A stretch of 38,681 bases of DNA from Minisyncoccota bacterium (GTDB lineage Bacteria > Patescibacteriota > Minisyncoccia > Phycocordibacterales > Zambryskibacteraceae): contig DATDVZ010000008.1 of assembly GCA_036517475.1 (NCBI GenBank), positions 1 to 38,681 on the forward strand, in the 5' to 3' direction. Under the pieces are notes generated by a model. It saw nothing but the letters and a program-made list of their open reading frames with translations. It searched no databases and was not told the origin of the DNA. Position 1 is the first letter of the stretch. Each line of letters starts with the position of its first letter. Below, piece by piece: positions 24,567-38,547 of the stretch. The position numbers were made by a program, and so were the translations under genes.

Positions 24567-25799
24567 TTACGTTAGAGGTATTTTCATTAGCGCATAGCGA
24601 ATTCTGACAACTGTGTCAGAATTTGCTTTGAACGTCAGTGATTTGATGTCTCTTCCCAATTGAAGCTTTGGGCTTCCGGGGATGAAAAGAACACTATCCC
24701 CATTCTGCTTCCTAATCCAATAGGGTATTGAATCCAAACTTATGATCTGGATTTTATATTTGCGTGGTATTTCAACCGCATTACTCCACTCCATCCCTAC
24801 GATAATTACCGTGTCAATCATGTAATTACCGGCGATATATCGATCAGGAAGTCCATATCCAATGGGGCGTTTGTTATAGTGTGCGTACCAGCACCAGGAG
24901 GATTTCTGCCAGTCCTCGTAGCCGGTCTTACCTTCCTTGCGTTTCTCTCTGACAATGTGCTCCGCAAACGAAGCATTGCCATCAAGTGTATGAATATCAA
25001 TGCCTGCTGACTTTGCGCTATCTCCCCAGATCTTTTCGTTGATCTGGAAAATTCCCACATCATTGGGGTCAGTACCGCGAAAGACGGTTTTTCCATCATC
25101 ATCATATTGCCTGAAATGAGATTCACAGGCCGCAATGTTACGCAGTACTGTATCTGACACCAGAGCAAAAAGAGAATCACGGTCAGGTCCCAAAAAATGT
25201 CTCCAAGGGCTTTCCGTGAATTTCTCTGCCACGCTCGCGCTTCTCACCGGCACTGTGCTTGAAGGGGGAACCTGTTGTAGCTGTTGCAGTTTTTTTCCGT
25301 ATAGTAAAATCATGACAACAGGGATAACAAACGCCCCAGCAATAATCAGACCATCTTTCCACTGCTTTCCTGCCTTAGTTGCAGACTGTTTTGCAGGCGC
25401 AGCTGTTGCTGAAACTGGAGTGGCACTAGCCGAAGTTTTTGATTTTCTGAAAGCGTAAACCAGAATCAAAATGACGATAGTTACTGCTAACGCAATCAGC
25501 CCAAACTTACCAACTGATGACCAGTTGATTATCGGCCAATCAATCCCTTTTAACTTCTCAATGAGATAGACTACACTTACTGCAACCAGAACCACAACGA
25601 TGATGGCGTTTCGCCGCCATCTTGGCAGAAGTTTCTTTTTCATTTTGTAACCCAAAGCCTTTCTCCAGAGAATATATTGGTATGTCCTCTTATGAACTGT
25701 GAATCTTGCTTTGGTGTAGAGCCATTGGCGGCGAAGATAGCGAGTAAATTGATGTCGCCACATTTGGCCCAACAGAAAAAGCGAATTGGATAAATCCAT
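24567..25799 (-). CDS. multi-pass membrane protein with a lysozyme-like / lytic transglycosylase domain
   Basis: Three TM helices, then IAACES (catalytic Glu), VGIFQIN and a W..S..CW motif; AAGGAGG RBS. Confidence 0.75.
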   Translation of the reverse strand: MDLSNSLFLLGQMWRHQFTRYLRRQWLYTKARFTVHKRTYQYILWRKALGYKMKKKLLPRWRRNAIIVVVLVAVSVVYLIEKLKGIDWPIINWSSVGKFGLIALAVTIVILILVYAFRKSKTSASATPVSATAAPAKQSATKAGKQWKDGLIIAGAFVIPVVMILLYGKKLQQLQQVPPSSTVPVRSASVAEKFTESPWRHFLGPDRDSLFALVSDTVLRNIAACESHFRQYDDDGKTVFRGTDPNDVGIFQINEKIWGDSAKSAGIDIHTLDGNASFAEHIVREKRKEGKTGYEDWQKSSWCWYAHYNKRPIGYGLPDRYIAGNYMIDTVIIVGMEWSNAVEIPRKYKIQIISLDSIPYWIRKQNGDSVLFIPGSPKLQLGRDIKSLTFKANSDTVVRIRYALMKIPLT

Positions 25800-25831
25800 A
25801 CTTCCTCCTTTGTAAGATCTTTTCTTTTAAC

Positions 25832-25861
25832 ATACTAACACATTTTTTATACATTTGTCAA
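25832..25861 (-). promoter_or_regulatory. sigma70-like promoter
   Basis: TTGACA-N18-TAGTAT on the minus strand. Confidence 0.6.
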
Positions 25862-25865
25862 TTAA

Positions 25866-25894
25866 AAAAGCTAACCAGAACTTGGTTAGCTTTT
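25866..25894 (-). terminator. intrinsic terminator
   Basis: AAAAGCTAACCA-gaact-TGGTTAGCTTTT. Confidence 0.7.
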
Positions 25895-25902
25895 GATGAA
25901 CA

Positions 25903-27003
25903 TTACTTCTCAGGCTGAGCTGATTTTCCTTTATCAGGCTGAGGAATAATGATACCCATACCCTTGCCACCAATAGAGAGGGTGGTAACGGTCTCATTGC
26001 TCTCATATGCTTCAGCAAACCTAACTGCAGGTCCTCCTGGTTCGCGGGCAACAGGCAGAATCACTCTATTTACGCGATCTTCATCTGCCTCATTGGCAAG
26101 CATCTGAACTTCCTTCGCCGCTTCTCCAGCAAGAATTGTAACTTTCTTGTCGGCTTCTGCCACCTGAATCTTGGCGGCCTGCTCAAGCCGAGTTTTTTCT
26201 GCAAGCTGAAGCAGTTCGCGCAGTTTCTTTTCTGCCTCATCCGGATCAATTGAGAAGAGGGAAGCATCGGTAATAAATATTCCGAGTTGACTGAGAGTAT
26301 CGCCAGCGATTCCTTCTATCGCGTCAGTAAGCTCTTCTTTCTGTTTCACATCTCCATATAAGTAATAGTCAGGCGGCTTGCTGCCAGTTAAGGCAATAGT
26401 TCTTGCTTCTGCCTTCTGCGAAAGTACAGCATTGGCATCAGCCACTCTAACGATGGCTTTAACTGGATGTTTTCTTTCAAAGATTATGTTGTAAATGATA
26501 TCAAGTCCGAAGGCTCCGGCAGTTTCGGCATTATCAACCTTTACCGCCTGATTACTTGAGAAGAAGACAAACTTTGTTTTCTGATCCTCTGGGAAAACAT
26601 GATATGTCTCTTCTTTATCCTTCCTTCCATATCTAAAAGACCGTAATGCATTCCGGCGAAGGTCTTTAAAAGGTCCTTTCCAATGTACGCCGTAAAGGCG
26701 ATGGAGTAGACCTCTATCTTCCTCTCCTTCCACGAACTCAGCGTTGAAAAGATTGTTATCTGCCGGAATTATTAAGCGGTGTCCAGGGATGTCATGAGCT
26801 ATTCCAACAATCCCGCCACCACCTTCAGTGAGATCTGTGGTCTCGTTACCTTTTCTTACTAGAAGGGCATACGTGTTTCCTGGAGTAAAAAACCAAAGAA
26901 TCTCCTTATTGGCAAGAGCTCTGATTGCAAGTCCGACGAAGAACCATAATCCAAAAAGTGTCGCAGCTATTGCTGCGGCATATATAAGAATTTGCGTCAG
27001 CAC
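25903..27003 (-). CDS. SPFH/band-7-like membrane protein
   Basis: N-terminal TM helix, a beta-rich domain ending LGIFITDASLFSIDP, then an AEA/AE-rich coiled coil; AAGGAGG RBS before GTG. Confidence 0.75.
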   Translation of the reverse strand: MLTQILIYAAAIAATLFGLWFFVGLAIRALANKEILWFFTPGNTYALLVRKGNETTDLTEGGGGIVGIAHDIPGHRLIIPADNNLFNAEFVEGEEDRGLLHRLYGVHWKGPFKDLRRNALRSFRYGRKDKEETYHVFPEDQKTKFVFFSSNQAVKVDNAETAGAFGLDIIYNIIFERKHPVKAIVRVADANAVLSQKAEARTIALTGSKPPDYYLYGDVKQKEELTDAIEGIAGDTLSQLGIFITDASLFSIDPDEAEKKLRELLQLAEKTRLEQAAKIQVAEADKKVTILAGEAAKEVQMLANEADEDRVNRVILPVAREPGGPAVRFAEAYESNETVTTLSIGGKGMGIIIPQPDKGKSAQPEK

Positions 27004-27045
27004 ATTTCCTCCTTTGAATAGTTTCAGAGATCTGTTCCAGTGAGG

Positions 27046-27074
27046 ATTCTATAATGAAGTTGGAGAAATGTCAA
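27046..27074 (-). promoter_or_regulatory. sigma70-like promoter
   Basis: TTGACA-N17-TAGAAT on the minus strand. Confidence 0.65.
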
Positions 27075-27089
27075 CTTTGTAATGAAAAA

Positions 27090-27117
27090 CCGCCGAGCGC
27101 GCAAGCACGCTCGGCGG
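27090..27117 (-). terminator. terminator-like hairpin
   Basis: CCGCCGAGCG-N8-CGCTCGGCGG. Confidence 0.65.
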
Positions 27118-27147
27118 CACTGATTTTCTAAAGCTACCTGATTGACT

Positions 27148-27840
27148 CTACTTCGGAAGTTGGCGAAGTTGATAGGTAAGCAGATCAGTGAAACTCCAGT
27201 TCTTGCTCACACCTGTTAACTTTCCTCGGACTGGATTATCGACACCATCGATTGTCCTGACCACGAATTTCAATGGCCAGCCATTATGTCCCGGAATTGA
27301 ATTCATGGCAATGTGGAAATCGGTCCACCAACACCACGGCGCGAATTTCCCCATAGCCATGCACAGGCGTGGACCAACCTCTGGCGGACAGATATCAATC
27401 TCCTGTCCATAGAGGTGATGTGCGCTCCAGCTGGCAAGCCACTCGGAGTTGAAGATTTGCTTTGACTTGTATGTGCCGAGAGCCGCCGGGGTGATAAAAA
27501 CCAAGTCGATCTTCTCCTGCTGAACCAGAGTGGTGAATCCTGGGTCAGCAAGCATTGTGTGTGCGTTTTCTTCTACTTCGCATGCGCTCTCGACTAATTG
27601 CGCCAACTCCAGAGGCCTTGCGCCTCCGATCTCCAGTCCATCGTGGTTTACCGGTAAGACCATTCTCATTCCCCGAGATACCTCTTGTCCCTCAGCGATT
27701 CGTTGAAGTTCACTCATTACCCAACGAACGGGAATGGCGCGATCGTCTAGCCGTTTCCTAACACCCATCCATCGACGATCAAGAGCTCCAACTTCTTCGT
27801 TCGTGAGTCTTCCGTCCGCGACAGCAGAATATGCCGTCAT
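27148..27840 (-). CDS. hypothetical protein (GC-richer than its neighbours)
   Basis: ATG at 27840 (MTAYSAV) has GGAGG upstream; own promoter and terminator. Confidence 0.7.
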   Translation of the reverse strand: MTAYSAVADGRLTNEEVGALDRRWMGVRKRLDDRAIPVRWVMSELQRIAEGQEVSRGMRMVLPVNHDGLEIGGARPLELAQLVESACEVEENAHTMLADPGFTTLVQQEKIDLVFITPAALGTYKSKQIFNSEWLASWSAHHLYGQEIDICPPEVGPRLCMAMGKFAPWCWWTDFHIAMNSIPGHNGWPLKFVVRTIDGVDNPVRGKLTGVSKNWSFTDLLTYQLRQLPK

Positions 27841-28020
27841 ATGACAGTTCCTCCGTTTTTGAACCCGGATTAACGCTCTGGTTGGCGGCAAGTCTCCGAA
27901 TGAGACAAGCTCTCCAACGTCGAGTTATTCGACGGCAAAGAGCTTGTCTCAGATTCAAATGATTGAAAAGATCTATGCTGTGGTGATCCTACAATAGCTT
28001 ATTGTTTTGTCAAGGTAAGT

Positions 28021-28169
28021 AAATAAATTTGTTTTATTAGTATGGGTGGGAGAGGACTTGATTCTTACAGAATCTGTACATCTTTCGCATTCTCCGCCAA
28101 TTGGCGGATCATATATGCTCAAGGTCTTCAAGTCCTCTCGCGAGAACAAATAAATTTGTTTTCTCCTTA
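28021..28169 (-). repeat. tRNA-Leu(TAG) 3'-associated structured element with a duplicated tRNA 3' end
   Basis: Direct repeat 28021-28061 vs 28148-28188 (127 bp period); inverted T-arm copy at 28127-28139. Confidence 0.8.
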
Positions 28170-28250
28170 TGGGCGGGAGAGGACTTGAACCTCCACTCCT
28201 TGCGGAACTAGCTCCTAAGGCTAGCGCGTCTGCCATTTCGCCACCCGCCC
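28170..28250 (-). tRNA. tRNA-Leu(TAG)
   Basis: Acceptor GGGCGGG/CCCGCCC, anticodon arm CTAGC-CTTAGGA-GCTAG, long variable arm, T-loop TTCAAGT; CCA not encoded. Confidence 0.95.
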
Positions 28251-28385: not shown

Positions 28386-28664
28386 TTAGGATCTTTTGGC
28401 TTTTAGGATCATTGTTCTGGTCCCAAGAAAATGTGTGGCAACATTTTTTCTAGGGATACTGAGTCTGTCTACTTCTTGCAAGAGAGCTTTCATACTCTTA
28501 GCTAAAGCTACTGATCTGCCATTATGGAATGCAACATACTGGTTAGGAAACTTTTTTTGAAGTCTTCTTAACTGCGCATCCATTGATCTAACGTTTGCAC
28601 TAAATGATCTTAATTCTCTTGCGACTTGAGACGGATTATCTATAAGATCCTTAAGTCGGTGCAT
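28386..28664 (-). CDS. small protein resembling the DUF5678 family
   Basis: KKFPNQYVAFHNGRSVALAKSMKALLQEV pattern, recalled family resemblance only. Confidence 0.6.
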   Translation of the reverse strand: MHRLKDLIDNPSQVARELRSFSANVRSMDAQLRRLQKKFPNQYVAFHNGRSVALAKSMKALLQEVDRLSIPRKNVATHFLGTRTMILKAKRS

Positions 28665-28770: not shown

Positions 28771-28792
28771 TTATGGCCACGTAGCCAAGTAG
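28771..28792 (+). repeat. duplicated 5' end of tRNA-Cys
   Basis: TTATGGCCACGTAGCCAAGTAG is identical to 28877-28898. Confidence 0.85.
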
Positions 28793-28880
28793 CATGAGCG
28801 TAGCGAATTATAAAAAAGCCAGCAAGCTGCTCAAGGTTAGTATTGTGGTAGGATTTTGTTGATTGTAATAAGTTAATTAT

Positions 28881-28955
28881 GGCCACGTAGCCAAGTAGTA
28901 AGGCAGCTCTCTGCAAAAGAGCTACACGCGAGTGCGATTCTCGCCGTGGCCTCCA
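28881..28955 (+). tRNA. tRNA-Cys(GCA)
   Basis: Acceptor GGCCACG/CGTGGCC, GCTCT-CTGCAAA-AGAGC, U discriminator, encoded CCA; variant T-loop TGCGATT. Confidence 0.9.
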
Positions 28956-29087
28956 GGCAACGGAGCAAGCAAATTGATTTGCTTGCGTCGAGAATCGCAG
29001 GCCGGAATATCTTGCCACAGGCAAGAATGAGGCGGGGTCGCGAGTTTGCATTGCAAAACTTGTGACCGATTCTCGCCGTGGCCTCCA
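28956..29087 (+). repeat. tRNA-Cys 3'-associated structured element
   Basis: 22 bp direct repeat 28935-28956 = 29067-29088 (132 bp period); inverted T-arm copy at 28989-28999. Confidence 0.85.
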
Positions 29088-29168
29088 GCCCGAGTGGTGG
29101 AATGGTTTACACGCACGACTTAAAATCGTGTGCCGCAAGGCATGTGAGTTCGAGTCTCACCTCGGGCA
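29088..29168 (+). tRNA. tRNA-Leu(TAA)
   Basis: Acceptor GCCCGAG/CTCGGGC, CACGA-CTTAAAA-TCGTG, long variable arm, T-loop TTCGAGT. Confidence 0.95.
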
Positions 29169-29171
29169 TTT

Positions 29172-29476
29172 CCGCCCATAGCTCAGCTGGTCCCGTACCA
29201 AAACCTTTTAAAAGGAATTTAATTTGTATAATATTGTATTTTATGTAATTTTCCGTCCCTGTGTCCACCCATAGCTCAGGCTGGTAGAGCAGTTGCCTCT
29301 TAAGCAAACGGTCGCAGGTTCGAATCCTGCTGGGTGGACACAGGGACGGCAACAAAAAATTATTTAGATAAATTTGGTACGGGATATATGCCGCAGTTGC
29401 GTCCCTGCCCCGTAGCAAGCTTCGCTTTGCTTCGGGGTTAAGCAAACGGTCGCAGGTTCGAATCCTGCTGGGCGGA
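29172..29476 (+). pseudogene. interrupted outer tRNA-Lys scaffold enclosing the intact tRNA-Lys
   Basis: 5' part CCGCCCATAGCTCAGCTGGT (29172-29191) and 3' part (29438-29476) have mutually complementary acceptor arms CCGCCCA/TGGGCGG. Confidence 0.65.
29265..29338 (+). tRNA. tRNA-Lys(CTT)
   Basis: Acceptor CCACCCA/TGGGTGG, GTTGC-CTCTTAA-GCAAA, GCAGG-TTCGAAT-CCTGC. Confidence 0.9.
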
Positions 29477-29610
29477 TATGATAGAAAAATAAGAATTGCT
29501 TCATATTTTTCGGTACATATCCGAGACGGAGCCATGTTTTTGCAGCTGCAAAAACAGGCGAGTCGGGGTCGCGGAAATTTCGTTTTAACGAAAACGAAAT
29601 TATCTGTGAC
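29473..29610 (+). repeat. structured element related to the tRNA-Cys element
   Basis: CGGATATG/CATATCCG stem, 22 bp palindrome at 29535-29556, GGGGTCGCG (29565-29573), hairpin, TGTGAC (29605-29610). Confidence 0.6.
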
Positions 29611-29621
29611 GATAAAAAATA

Positions 29622-38356: not shown

Positions 38357-38360
38357 CAAA

Positions 38361-38547
38361 ACAAATATTCGAGCCTTACGCTCGCTAATTTTGTTTTGCT
38401 GAATCATGGGTGGGATTCGAACAGGAAGAGGGTCGGAGAAACTCTAGTTTCTCCGTGAAGGAAAACAGCGAGCTAAGCGAGCGTTAGAAACCGTGGGTTT
38501 CTAAAGAGCGACGCAGTCGCGAGTGAGATTCCAACCCGGCGCACAAA
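38361..38547 (+). repeat. tRNA-Tyr 3'-associated structured element
   Basis: 18 bp direct repeat 38343-38360 = 38530-38547 (187 bp period); inverted T-arm copy at 38408-38422. Confidence 0.85.

Follow-up and report, generated by a model that had tools for sequence, protein, structure and literature searches.

A candidate family of small, protein-less insertion elements behind bacterial tRNA genes, typified by a 132-nt unit between tRNA-Cys and tRNA-Leu(TAA)

A stretch of DNA of 38,681 nucleotides (nt) from a Minisyncoccota bacterium (GenBank assembly GCA_036517475.1, contig DATDVZ010000008.1), hereafter the window, carries between its genes for tRNA-Cys(GCA) and tRNA-Leu(TAA) a 132-nt unit that is probably one copy of a small, protein-less, non-coding insertion element duplicating part of its target. 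We call the family of this element T1. The core of the element, made of two helices named P_b and P_c, is a conserved three-way junction of the sense strand, and the members of the family show a fixed left junction at position C56 of the tRNA T loop, a variable right end and tandem arrays. No matching family was found in Rfam and no description of T1 in the literature searched, and it lies outside every known kind of element tested. The window itself is a Patescibacteria-type chromosome segment carrying IF-2, RbfA and DUF4446.

The tRNA-Cys gene of the window is intact (Table 1) and has two peculiarities of its own: its T loop, TGCGATT, is unusual, and CCA is gene-encoded at 28953-28955, a trait confined to this tRNA-Cys lineage. 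A direct repeat of 22 nt (CGATTCTCGCCGTGGCCTCCAG) occupies 28935-28956 and 29067-29088 with 100% identity at a spacing of 132 nt, for which the chance expectation (an exact 22-nt repeat inside 2.6 kb) is about 1e-7. Each copy runs from C56 of the T loop through the 3' strands of the T-stem and acceptor stem, the discriminator U and the encoded CCA to one extra G, and the last G of the distal copy is at the same time G1 of tRNA-Leu(TAA), so that the gap is zero. Between the two copies lie 110 nt, and the 132-nt unit corresponds to 28956-29087; the only open reading frames (ORFs) overlapping the repeats are minus-strand frames crossing the tRNA genes. The first-pass annotation of this DNA had already described a 22-bp repeat including CCA whose second copy runs without a gap into tRNA-Leu(TAA) at 29088, and direct reading, ARAGORN and Rfam all bear it out; that deletion of one unit leaves the Cys and Leu genes directly abutting follows from simple arithmetic. 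The further claim that the element regenerates a CCA end survives only in part: a second CCA is indeed present, but it is a passive outcome of a duplication that begins at C56 and continues past the end of the gene.

The minimum free energy (MFE) fold of 28956-29087 is far better than that of shuffled sequences (z = -5.8) and comprises an acceptor-like stem (GGCAACGG with CCGUGGCC, then UCCA), a hairpin termed A, a helix P_a and two more hairpins. P_a is formed by the left arm of the unit and the distal copy (an inverted repeat of 12 nt, 92%), and the segment AATCGCA of this arm matches the unusual T loop of this very tRNA-Cys. In the window, the signature of P_b is found as GCCGGA at 29001-29006 and GAGGC at 29029-29033, while the invariant helix pattern CGGGGUCGCG ... 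UGUGACC is matched at 29033-29066, and the last C of P_c (29067) is C56 of the distal tRNA copy. The order of the unit is thus the 3' part of the tRNA from C56, a trailer (here the acceptor-like strand and hairpin A), the complementary arm and the P_b/P_c core; it sits head-to-tail on a tRNA gene that stays intact, with a second copy of the gene's 3' end behind the core. All five features that characterize T1 (position, C56 copy, P_b, P_c and left arm) are present in this element.

Searches of 28956-29087 against the Rfam 15 covariance models, among them those of self-cleaving ribozymes, group I/II introns, tmRNA and Y-RNA-like families, gave no match at the gathering threshold or at E<=5, and the elements of five other loci gave none at E<=1. 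Three more familiar identities for the unit were considered and rejected. A second, intron-containing tRNA-Cys gene is at odds with the silence of ARAGORN and of the Rfam tRNA model, the lack of a D or anticodon arm and the 4-nt loop of hairpin A; a group I or archaeal-type intron is at odds with the lack of anticodon and D arms, the lack of an Rfam intron match and the small size. As for known self-cleaving ribozymes, a hammerhead-like topology was weighed, but the junction sequences do not fit and cmscan was silent.

To delimit the family we used the core pattern ...TCGAAAG-N-CGGA-X(hairpin b)X'-GAG-N'-CGGGGUCGCG(hairpin c)YUGUGAC/C56, in which the slash marks the junction. A scan of species-representative genomes with this pattern returned at least 120 loci, a few GC-rich matches being due to chance; the taxa among the matches listed are mostly Patescibacteria of several classes, with several Elusimicrobia. 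Together with the loci collected earlier and the window, 130 T1 core matches were available, and the following counts refer to these as listed. A tRNA gene lies on the same strand within 300 nt upstream of the core in 83 of the 130, and in 41 of the 130 an exact 12-nt tRNA copy starts 18-21 nt before the annotated tRNA end, that is, at C56 of the T loop. These 41 span 20 anticodon types, and further types occur among the other 42 tRNA-linked cores, which brings the total above 20. The label 'tRNA-Cys element', under which the unit had been annotated, is accordingly too narrow: members of the same family follow tRNAs with more than 20 anticodons, and some of them follow protein genes.

The boundaries of the duplication are equally characteristic. 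In 55 of 68 cases it starts 18-21 nt before the tRNA end (C56), whereas its right end may lie anywhere between -11 and about +49 nt relative to that end (two values of +70 reflect tandem arrays cut by the scan window). The duplicated block consequently ranges from about 18 to 62 nt, and the largest blocks (57-62 nt) may include a terminator. A separate scan for downstream copies of tRNA 3' ends identified 22 cases, 3 in the window and 19 in loci retrieved through IF2 homologues. The layout in the cases inspected is a tRNA, optionally a terminator and/or hairpin A, a complementary arm, an A-rich junction, two hairpins and the copy from C56 onward. Terminators stand between the tRNA and the element at L053, L061 and L139 (locus handles are ours), and many members (L018, L011) have a degenerate acceptor-like strand or none. 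At L139 the two copies carry different terminators, each intact, which fits an incoming unit that provides the proximal 3' end and has displaced the original, now the distal copy. Tandem arrays were found at L011 (at least 3 units), L087 and L108, decayed or truncated copies at L085 and L139, and many T1 cores lie at contig ends. T1 also stands behind a topoisomerase-like gene (L095, L130) and behind a gene read by eye as rpsI (L153, putative), followed in all three by a diverged second copy of the last ~45 nt of the protein gene; the junction trinucleotide CRA is common to these targets and looks as though it lies inside a T-arm-like hairpin.

At least four types of core (T1, T2, T3 and T4) can be distinguished, the Cys element of the window being of type T1. 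One and the same site may be occupied by different types across species, as seen behind tRNA-Leu(TAG), where T1, T2 and T4 all occur. Conversely, near-identical cores are found at different tRNA genes of one genome with both arms matched to the local tRNA (L069, L040, L085). Among viral contigs there is one true T1 (L209), the other nine matches being chance hits in coding DNA. The genes beside the elements point to no linked protein family: the most recurrent neighbouring family appears at 7 of ~115 loci, and the recurrent families are housekeeping genes. One locus shows the reverse of the usual layout: at L141 (203-400) a T1 core is lodged inside the T loop of a full-length upstream copy of tRNA-Lys(TTT) (nt 1-53, core, degenerate 56-76), and the intact tRNA-Lys(TTT) follows 45 nt downstream.

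The fold of the core is conserved through compensatory change. In a MAFFT alignment of 37 members, RNAalifold recovered P_b and a 15-bp P_c, with compensatory changes in 11 of 20 pairs. Paired cells amount to 97.4% (75.8% in shuffled alignments) and double changes to 155 (42 shuffled), and the covariation score is 0.539 against 0.135, with none of 500 shuffles as high and slid controls at or below 0.136. The segment GGUCGCG/UGUGACC is invariant in all 37 members, including its two G.U pairs, while the N:N' pair of P_b is CG in 24 members, AU in 8, GC in 3 and UA in 2. Across the 98 members that were parsed, the bases preceding CGGA and CGGGG pair with each other in all four Watson-Crick combinations; this parse was selected for pairing, but the covariation is also visible in the raw listing and was confirmed independently in the alignment. 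The two hairpins are themselves highly diverse in sequence (92 distinct versions of hairpin b and 89 of hairpin c), and both fold better on the sense strand (74 vs 14 for hairpin b, 69 vs 24 for hairpin c). The invariant G.U pairs and this strand bias point to an RNA of the polarity of the tRNA, or to a single-stranded state of that DNA strand.

Whether the Cys-Leu(TAA) pair is ancestral was addressed with 80 loci (L001-L080) supplied by IF2 homologues of 51-58% identity, the collections containing no close relative. Most Paceibacteria-like relatives retain the order IF2-RbfA-tRNA Cys-Leu(TAA)-Lys(CTT)-Leu(TAG). Among 63 adjacent Cys->Leu(TAA) pairs the median gap is 43 nt, with 51 of the 63 gaps falling between 3 and 81 nt; relatives with gaps of 3-15 nt exist. 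The nearest tRNA-Cys found (L202; one mismatch, CCA encoded) is followed by an unrelated 45-nt spacer, and the element is absent. Because of the conserved order, the short gaps and the element-free L202, we regard the 132-nt unit as an addition to an ancestral pair, and the zero gap between the distal copy and tRNA-Leu suggests that both genes formerly touched or nearly so. A T1 element also occupies the Cys-Leu site of one other species (L085), together with a truncated second unit. A metagenome scan with a 24-mer of the tRNA-Cys T-arm returned eight related contigs, none of the same species and none with an element behind Cys; L202 and L208, the latter with a gap of 4 nt, are among them. The earlier proposal of an insertion into an ancestral Cys-Leu operon is hence supported by synteny in 63 loci and by an empty site in most relatives, but not by an empty allele of the same species. 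Such an allele is predicted to have GCGAGTGCGATTCTCGCCGTGGCCTCCA joined directly to GCCCGAGTGG; the empty-junction 18-mer put forward in the first-pass annotation, CGTGGCCTCCAGCCCGAG, gave only chance matches in GC-rich genomes when sought in genome contigs.

No RNA run containing the window was found, but transcription could be followed for one other member, L122, a metagenome-assembled genome (MAG) of a lake Paceibacteria in which T1 lies behind tRNA-Leu(TAA). A freshwater metatranscriptome contig of 185 nt and a depth of 12.1 is 100% identical to L122 5993..5818 (minus strand) and then runs into AGTGGAATA, which in the L122 genome follows the proximal tRNA end and not the distal copy. The first 30 nt of this RNA contig equal its last 30 nt, giving a cycle of 155 nt, which is the repeat period. 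The only other RNA contig on the 8-kb L122 locus is a piece of mRNA with a depth of 2.2. The L122 element is therefore transcribed and accumulates, its units being head to tail in RNA. The junction itself may stem from a circular RNA, from a tandem array collapsed in the MAG, or from a longer duplication in the sampled strain.

We propose that the unit spreads via a unit-length intermediate, circular or tandemly repeated and made of RNA or DNA, which would join its target at the loop motif T/CRA of a T-arm-like hairpin. A replacement 3' end, brought along by the unit, would leave the gene intact in the manner of tRNA-targeting integrative elements, and the complementary arm and the core may constitute the structure by which a trans-acting enzyme, or the RNA itself, defines the junction. 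In the window, the outcome would be an intact tRNA-Cys gene and a displaced or duplicated 3' end, complete with CCA, abutting tRNA-Leu(TAA). Our confidence in a selfish insertion is moderate, whereas that in any specific mechanism is low. Since the duplicated block enters the trailer or terminator and carries no non-encoded CCA, the mature tRNA was not its source; a reverse-transcribed copy of the mature tRNA made from the CCA end, reminiscent of a retroviral primer-binding site, was rejected on the same grounds, the copies lacking CCA wherever the gene lacks it.

Several points weigh against the insertion-element reading. The ~115 loci scanned revealed no recombinase, transposase or reverse transcriptase linked to the element. 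The reading does not account for the origin of a target-matched arm at each new target, and the near-identical cores within a genome could stem from gene conversion and not from transposition. The position of several members behind an intrinsic terminator argues against simple co-transcription with the tRNA. The RNA junction of L122, which comes from a species other than that of the window, can also be explained by a tandem array or a longer duplication. No empty allele of the same species was found. Lastly, eight DNA runs hold the flanks of the window in Logan contigs at roughly 3-15x, and 28975-29087 is not covered by any of these contigs, so that the interior of the unit is taken from the window assembly. 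This gap, together with a contig of run X10 that holds 29029-29072 at 100% identity in another context, would be expected if the spacer of another organism's element had been stitched between two copies of a shared 22-mer. Such an assembly artefact is nevertheless most improbable. In contigs of runs X4 and X8, precisely this variant of tRNA-Cys is continuous with the start of the spacer, up to 28972-28974 (its first 17-19 nt), and more than 100 further assemblies show the same architecture, among them L085, which has it at this very site; a chimera is also unlikely because the left arm matches the odd T loop of this tRNA-Cys. The Logan contigs of the eight runs contain no joint that skips the unit. 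In these runs the modules also occur behind different tRNA ends, on contigs of other organisms, and run X11, compared with L116 and with the window element, yielded nothing relevant.

The unit could instead be the scar of an integrative element or prophage that entered the T loop of tRNA-Cys with a replacement 3' end of its own and later lost almost all of its content, leaving attL and attR 132 nt apart in the manner of a cis-mobilizable element (CIME). The repeats do start in the T loop (Cys) or in the anticodon loop (the outer and inner tRNA-Lys genes of the window, see below), which are reportedly the classical sublocations of tyrosine-integrase att sites in tRNA genes, and the blocks may include trailer and terminator and differ between copies, as expected for an element-borne 3' end. 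We nonetheless judge this origin quite improbable: the same structured core of ~70 nt at more than 100 independent loci, at a spacing of about 100-200 nt, is unexpected from random deletion, no integrase linked to the element was found in the ~115 loci scanned, the sequence immediately preceding the distal copy belongs to helix P_c and is no T-stem-like core-type site, and the invariant G.U pairs indicate a fold of a single strand. Strong conservation with covariation would suit a host-serving, tRNA-like non-coding RNA gene, namely a locally duplicated acceptor/T-arm minihelix with an expanded T loop that might set 3' ends via RNase P or RNase Z, act as a decoy or spare part upon damage to the T loop or 3' end, or titrate a factor. 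In its favour, the fold of the unit includes an acceptor-like stem with UCCA at its end, RNase P cuts 5' of G28956 and G29088 would free a tRNA-Cys and an element with mature ends, and one member outnumbers the single mRNA contig detected at its locus. However, the patchy occurrence at orthologous sites, the different core types at one site, the decayed, tandem and protein-gene-linked copies, the frequent erosion of the acceptor-like strand and the intervening terminators described above make a host function unlikely.

A new ribozyme or guide RNA forms the basis of another alternative, in which a DNA-encoded small circular RNA is cut or circularized at the foot of P_c, next to C56, and copied back into DNA, much as in retrozymes and viroid-like RNAs. 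The three-way junction, with one open helix, two hairpins and a target strand starting at the foot of P_c, is compatible with this, as are the head-to-tail RNA junction, the tandem DNA arrays and the lack of coding capacity. The unit matches no known ribozyme family, though, evidence of cleavage and a linked reverse transcriptase are both lacking, and the duplicated block enters the trailer or terminator with no non-encoded CCA, which leads us to consider this explanation distinctly unlikely. A more elaborate picture, in which T1 and its sister types are a protein-less and programmable retroelement or viroid-like parasite, existing as a DNA-encoded, circular or multimeric RNA of ~110-190 nt whose ribozyme or guide core and complementary arm direct joining at C56 or at T-arm-like hairpins and which brings a spare 3' end that lets the host gene survive, appears doubtful. 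An insertion element that duplicates part of its target is thus the reading that we retain for the unit.

Table 1. Coordinates of the tRNA genes, repeats and elements discussed in the text (positions within the window)
Feature	Position	Strand	Remarks
tRNA-Cys(GCA), intact	28881..28955	+	ARAGORN; Rfam tRNA model, 60.9 bits
Proximal copy of the 22-nt repeat	28935..28956	+	T-loop C56 to CCA, plus one G
GGCAACGG, degenerate segment resembling an acceptor 5' strand	28956..28963	+	Pairs with CCGUGGCC of the distal copy, one A.G mismatch; MFE fold
Hairpin A, GCAAGCAAA-TTGA-TTTGCTTGC	28965..28986	+	Module recurs behind other tRNAs and in other species
Left arm GTCGAGAATCGCA	28987..28999	+	Complement of tRNA-Cys T-loop 56-60 and T-stem 3' strand
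Helix P_b	29001..29033	+	Base G-N-C:G-N'-C (N:N' here C:G), GGA/GA internal loop, then variable hairpin
Helix P_c	29036..29067	+	Invariant GGUCGCG/UGUGACC segment, two invariant G.U pairs, variable top
Distal copy of the 22-nt repeat	29067..29088	+	Abuts tRNA-Leu(TAA), last G common to both
tRNA-Leu(TAA), ancestral downstream neighbour of tRNA-Cys	29088..29168	+	ARAGORN, Rfam, synteny
Second T1-type element, core 29564-29610	29508..29612	+	Between broken outer tRNA-Lys 3' end and rbfA
T4-type element behind tRNA-Leu(TAG)	28021..28168	-	Ends in copy of tRNA 3' end and trailer, 41 nt, 88% identical
T3-type element behind tRNA-Tyr	38358..38547	+	Ends in tRNA 3'-end copy
Pseudo-tRNA-Cys 5' copy	28771..28880	+	Flank and nt 1-18 exact, then CATGAGCGTAGCGAA module; separate 5'-side duplication

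The same architecture is found behind four tRNA genes of the window (Table 1), and within each of the 3' spacers concerned one segment is the complement of its own tRNA's T-loop and T-stem 3' half. The 3' end and trailer of tRNA-Leu(TAG) are repeated 127 nt downstream and the 3' end of tRNA-Tyr about 190 nt downstream. In the second T1 element (29508-29612), the right flank repeats the trailer (GATA...) and not the T loop. This element follows a composite tRNA-Lys locus (29171-29476), in which an intact tRNA-Lys(CTT) at 29265-29339 is nested in a broken outer tRNA-Lys, inside an extended stem of 22 nt. The outer gene consists of a 5' part (29173-29190) and a 3' part (29403-29476) with a 37-nt hairpin in its anticodon loop, and is split in the D-loop; the insert is flanked by perfect 12-nt inverted repeats (29191-29202 and 29373-29384), and the acceptor stems of the outer and inner tRNA-Lys differ by a compensatory change.

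Duplications of tRNA 5' ends are a distinct phenomenon in the same region. The first 18 nt of tRNA-Cys are repeated 106 nt upstream of the gene, in a pseudo-tRNA-Cys with the tandem-G.A hairpin module CATGAGCGTAGCGAA at the D-loop position and a degenerate anticodon arm thereafter. This arrangement occurs in at least 13 relatives (L013, L016, L019, L036, L040, L047, L054, L057, L059, L061 and others), and tRNAs for Tyr, Ser, Arg, Val, Glu and Gln have comparable 5' copies (28 cases); at L034, the tRNA-Leu 5' end is present as a copy that pairs with its complement farther downstream, mirroring the 3' elements. The Cys-Leu(TAA) gap is also occupied by other kinds of sequence. In L029, L047, L053 and L058 a gap of ~550-580 nt holds a free-standing HNH endonuclease ORF of ~150 aa, and duplication of tRNA ends is absent there. 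The spacers of L017, L045 and L063 share a motif of ~70 nt (GCYGGT-hairpin-AATCGCCG...CGA-RCCGGC-RATAGG) upstream of tRNA-Leu(TAA).

On a larger scale, the Cys-Leu(TAA)-Lys block of the window (28771-29612) has, with IF2-RbfA as the reference, the opposite orientation to that seen in most relatives, and other partial inversions of the cluster were seen at L019, L022, L024, L025, L033, L037 and L054. Between the Cys and Leu(TAG) genes the minus strand encodes a DUF5678-like ORF of 92 aa (28386-28664). The adjoining region 24567-27891, next to tRNA-Leu(TAG), has a GC content of 0.43-0.49, compared with about 0.39, and contains an SPFH/Band-7-like ORF and two ORFs without Pfam matches; it is possibly foreign DNA.

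If real, T1 and its relatives would represent a large family of structured RNAs in the tRNA operons of Patescibacteria and Elusimicrobia, present in more than 100 species and at least four times in these 38.7 kb alone. The family would explain many odd tRNA fragments and contig breaks and thus bears on annotation and on island finders that rely on tRNA fragments. It would also exemplify a harmless route of insertion into essential, single-copy tRNA genes. The target-matched arm and the precise junction suggest a choice of site guided by nucleic acid with no linked protein, which would be relevant to mobile elements and to programmable insertion, and the head-to-tail RNA makes the existence of DNA-encoded small circular RNAs in bacteria a directly testable question.

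How T1 relates to known systems can be judged by their defining features, and it departs from each of those compared: an integrase, terminal repeats of its own, a short duplication of fixed length and a known ribozyme are all missing from it. A parallel in layout is offered by tRNA-targeting integrative elements, which likewise create a direct repeat of the 3' part of the tRNA starting at the T loop (in the window such repeats begin in the T loop at tRNA-Cys and in the anticodon loop at tRNA-Lys), keep the tRNA intact by means of a replacement 3' end, accrete in tandem and also target the 3' ends of protein genes. T1, however, measures only about 110-190 nt, comes with neither integrase nor cargo, and is marked by a fold conserved on a single strand, by invariant G.U pairs and by an arm that complements the target copy. 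With short interspersed nuclear elements (SINEs) and transposable elements of the miniature inverted-repeat type (MITEs) it shares a short, non-coding, multi-copy and partly tRNA-like nature and a reliance on functions provided in trans. It differs from them in having no A-tail and no element-specific terminal inverted repeats, in a duplication of 18-62 nt with one fixed end and in its constant location at the 3' end of a target gene; the change of the arms with the target tRNA and the variable length of the duplication also set it apart from MITEs.

Retrozymes, circular RNAs of the viroid-like kind and circularly permuted tRNA genes (PMC3978253) may resemble T1 in head-to-tail RNA, tandem DNA units and ends of the tRNA-processing type, but T1, whose circular form is putative, has no match to a known ribozyme, is bacterial and is joined to an intact tRNA gene. 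The Clostridiales-1 RNA (RF01699), a structured RNA of unknown function for which a link to tRNA ends is not on record in PMC2864571, resembles the T4 element of the window in UGAGCAU...GAAUGCGAA, a GAUU...AAUC hairpin, a multi-stem junction and an outer closing helix. The T4 element scores 21.9 bits against this model (E = 0.008 on 261 nt, 28049-28199, minus strand), whereas the gathering score is 48, and the Cys T1 element gives no match; Clostridiales-1 may be a relative of the tRNA-linked elements, a lead and not an assignment to the family. The attP(+) site of the CTX phage, used by XerCD, and the attC sites of integrons differ from T1 in that the arms of T1 vary with the target, that it has no core of the Xer or IntI type, that its joining point is placed at the base of a three-way junction and that it was once found abundant as RNA. 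They are nonetheless similar to it in mode of folding: inverted and direct target-like copies ~70-100 nt apart pair within one strand, structure is conserved above sequence, and the strand matters.

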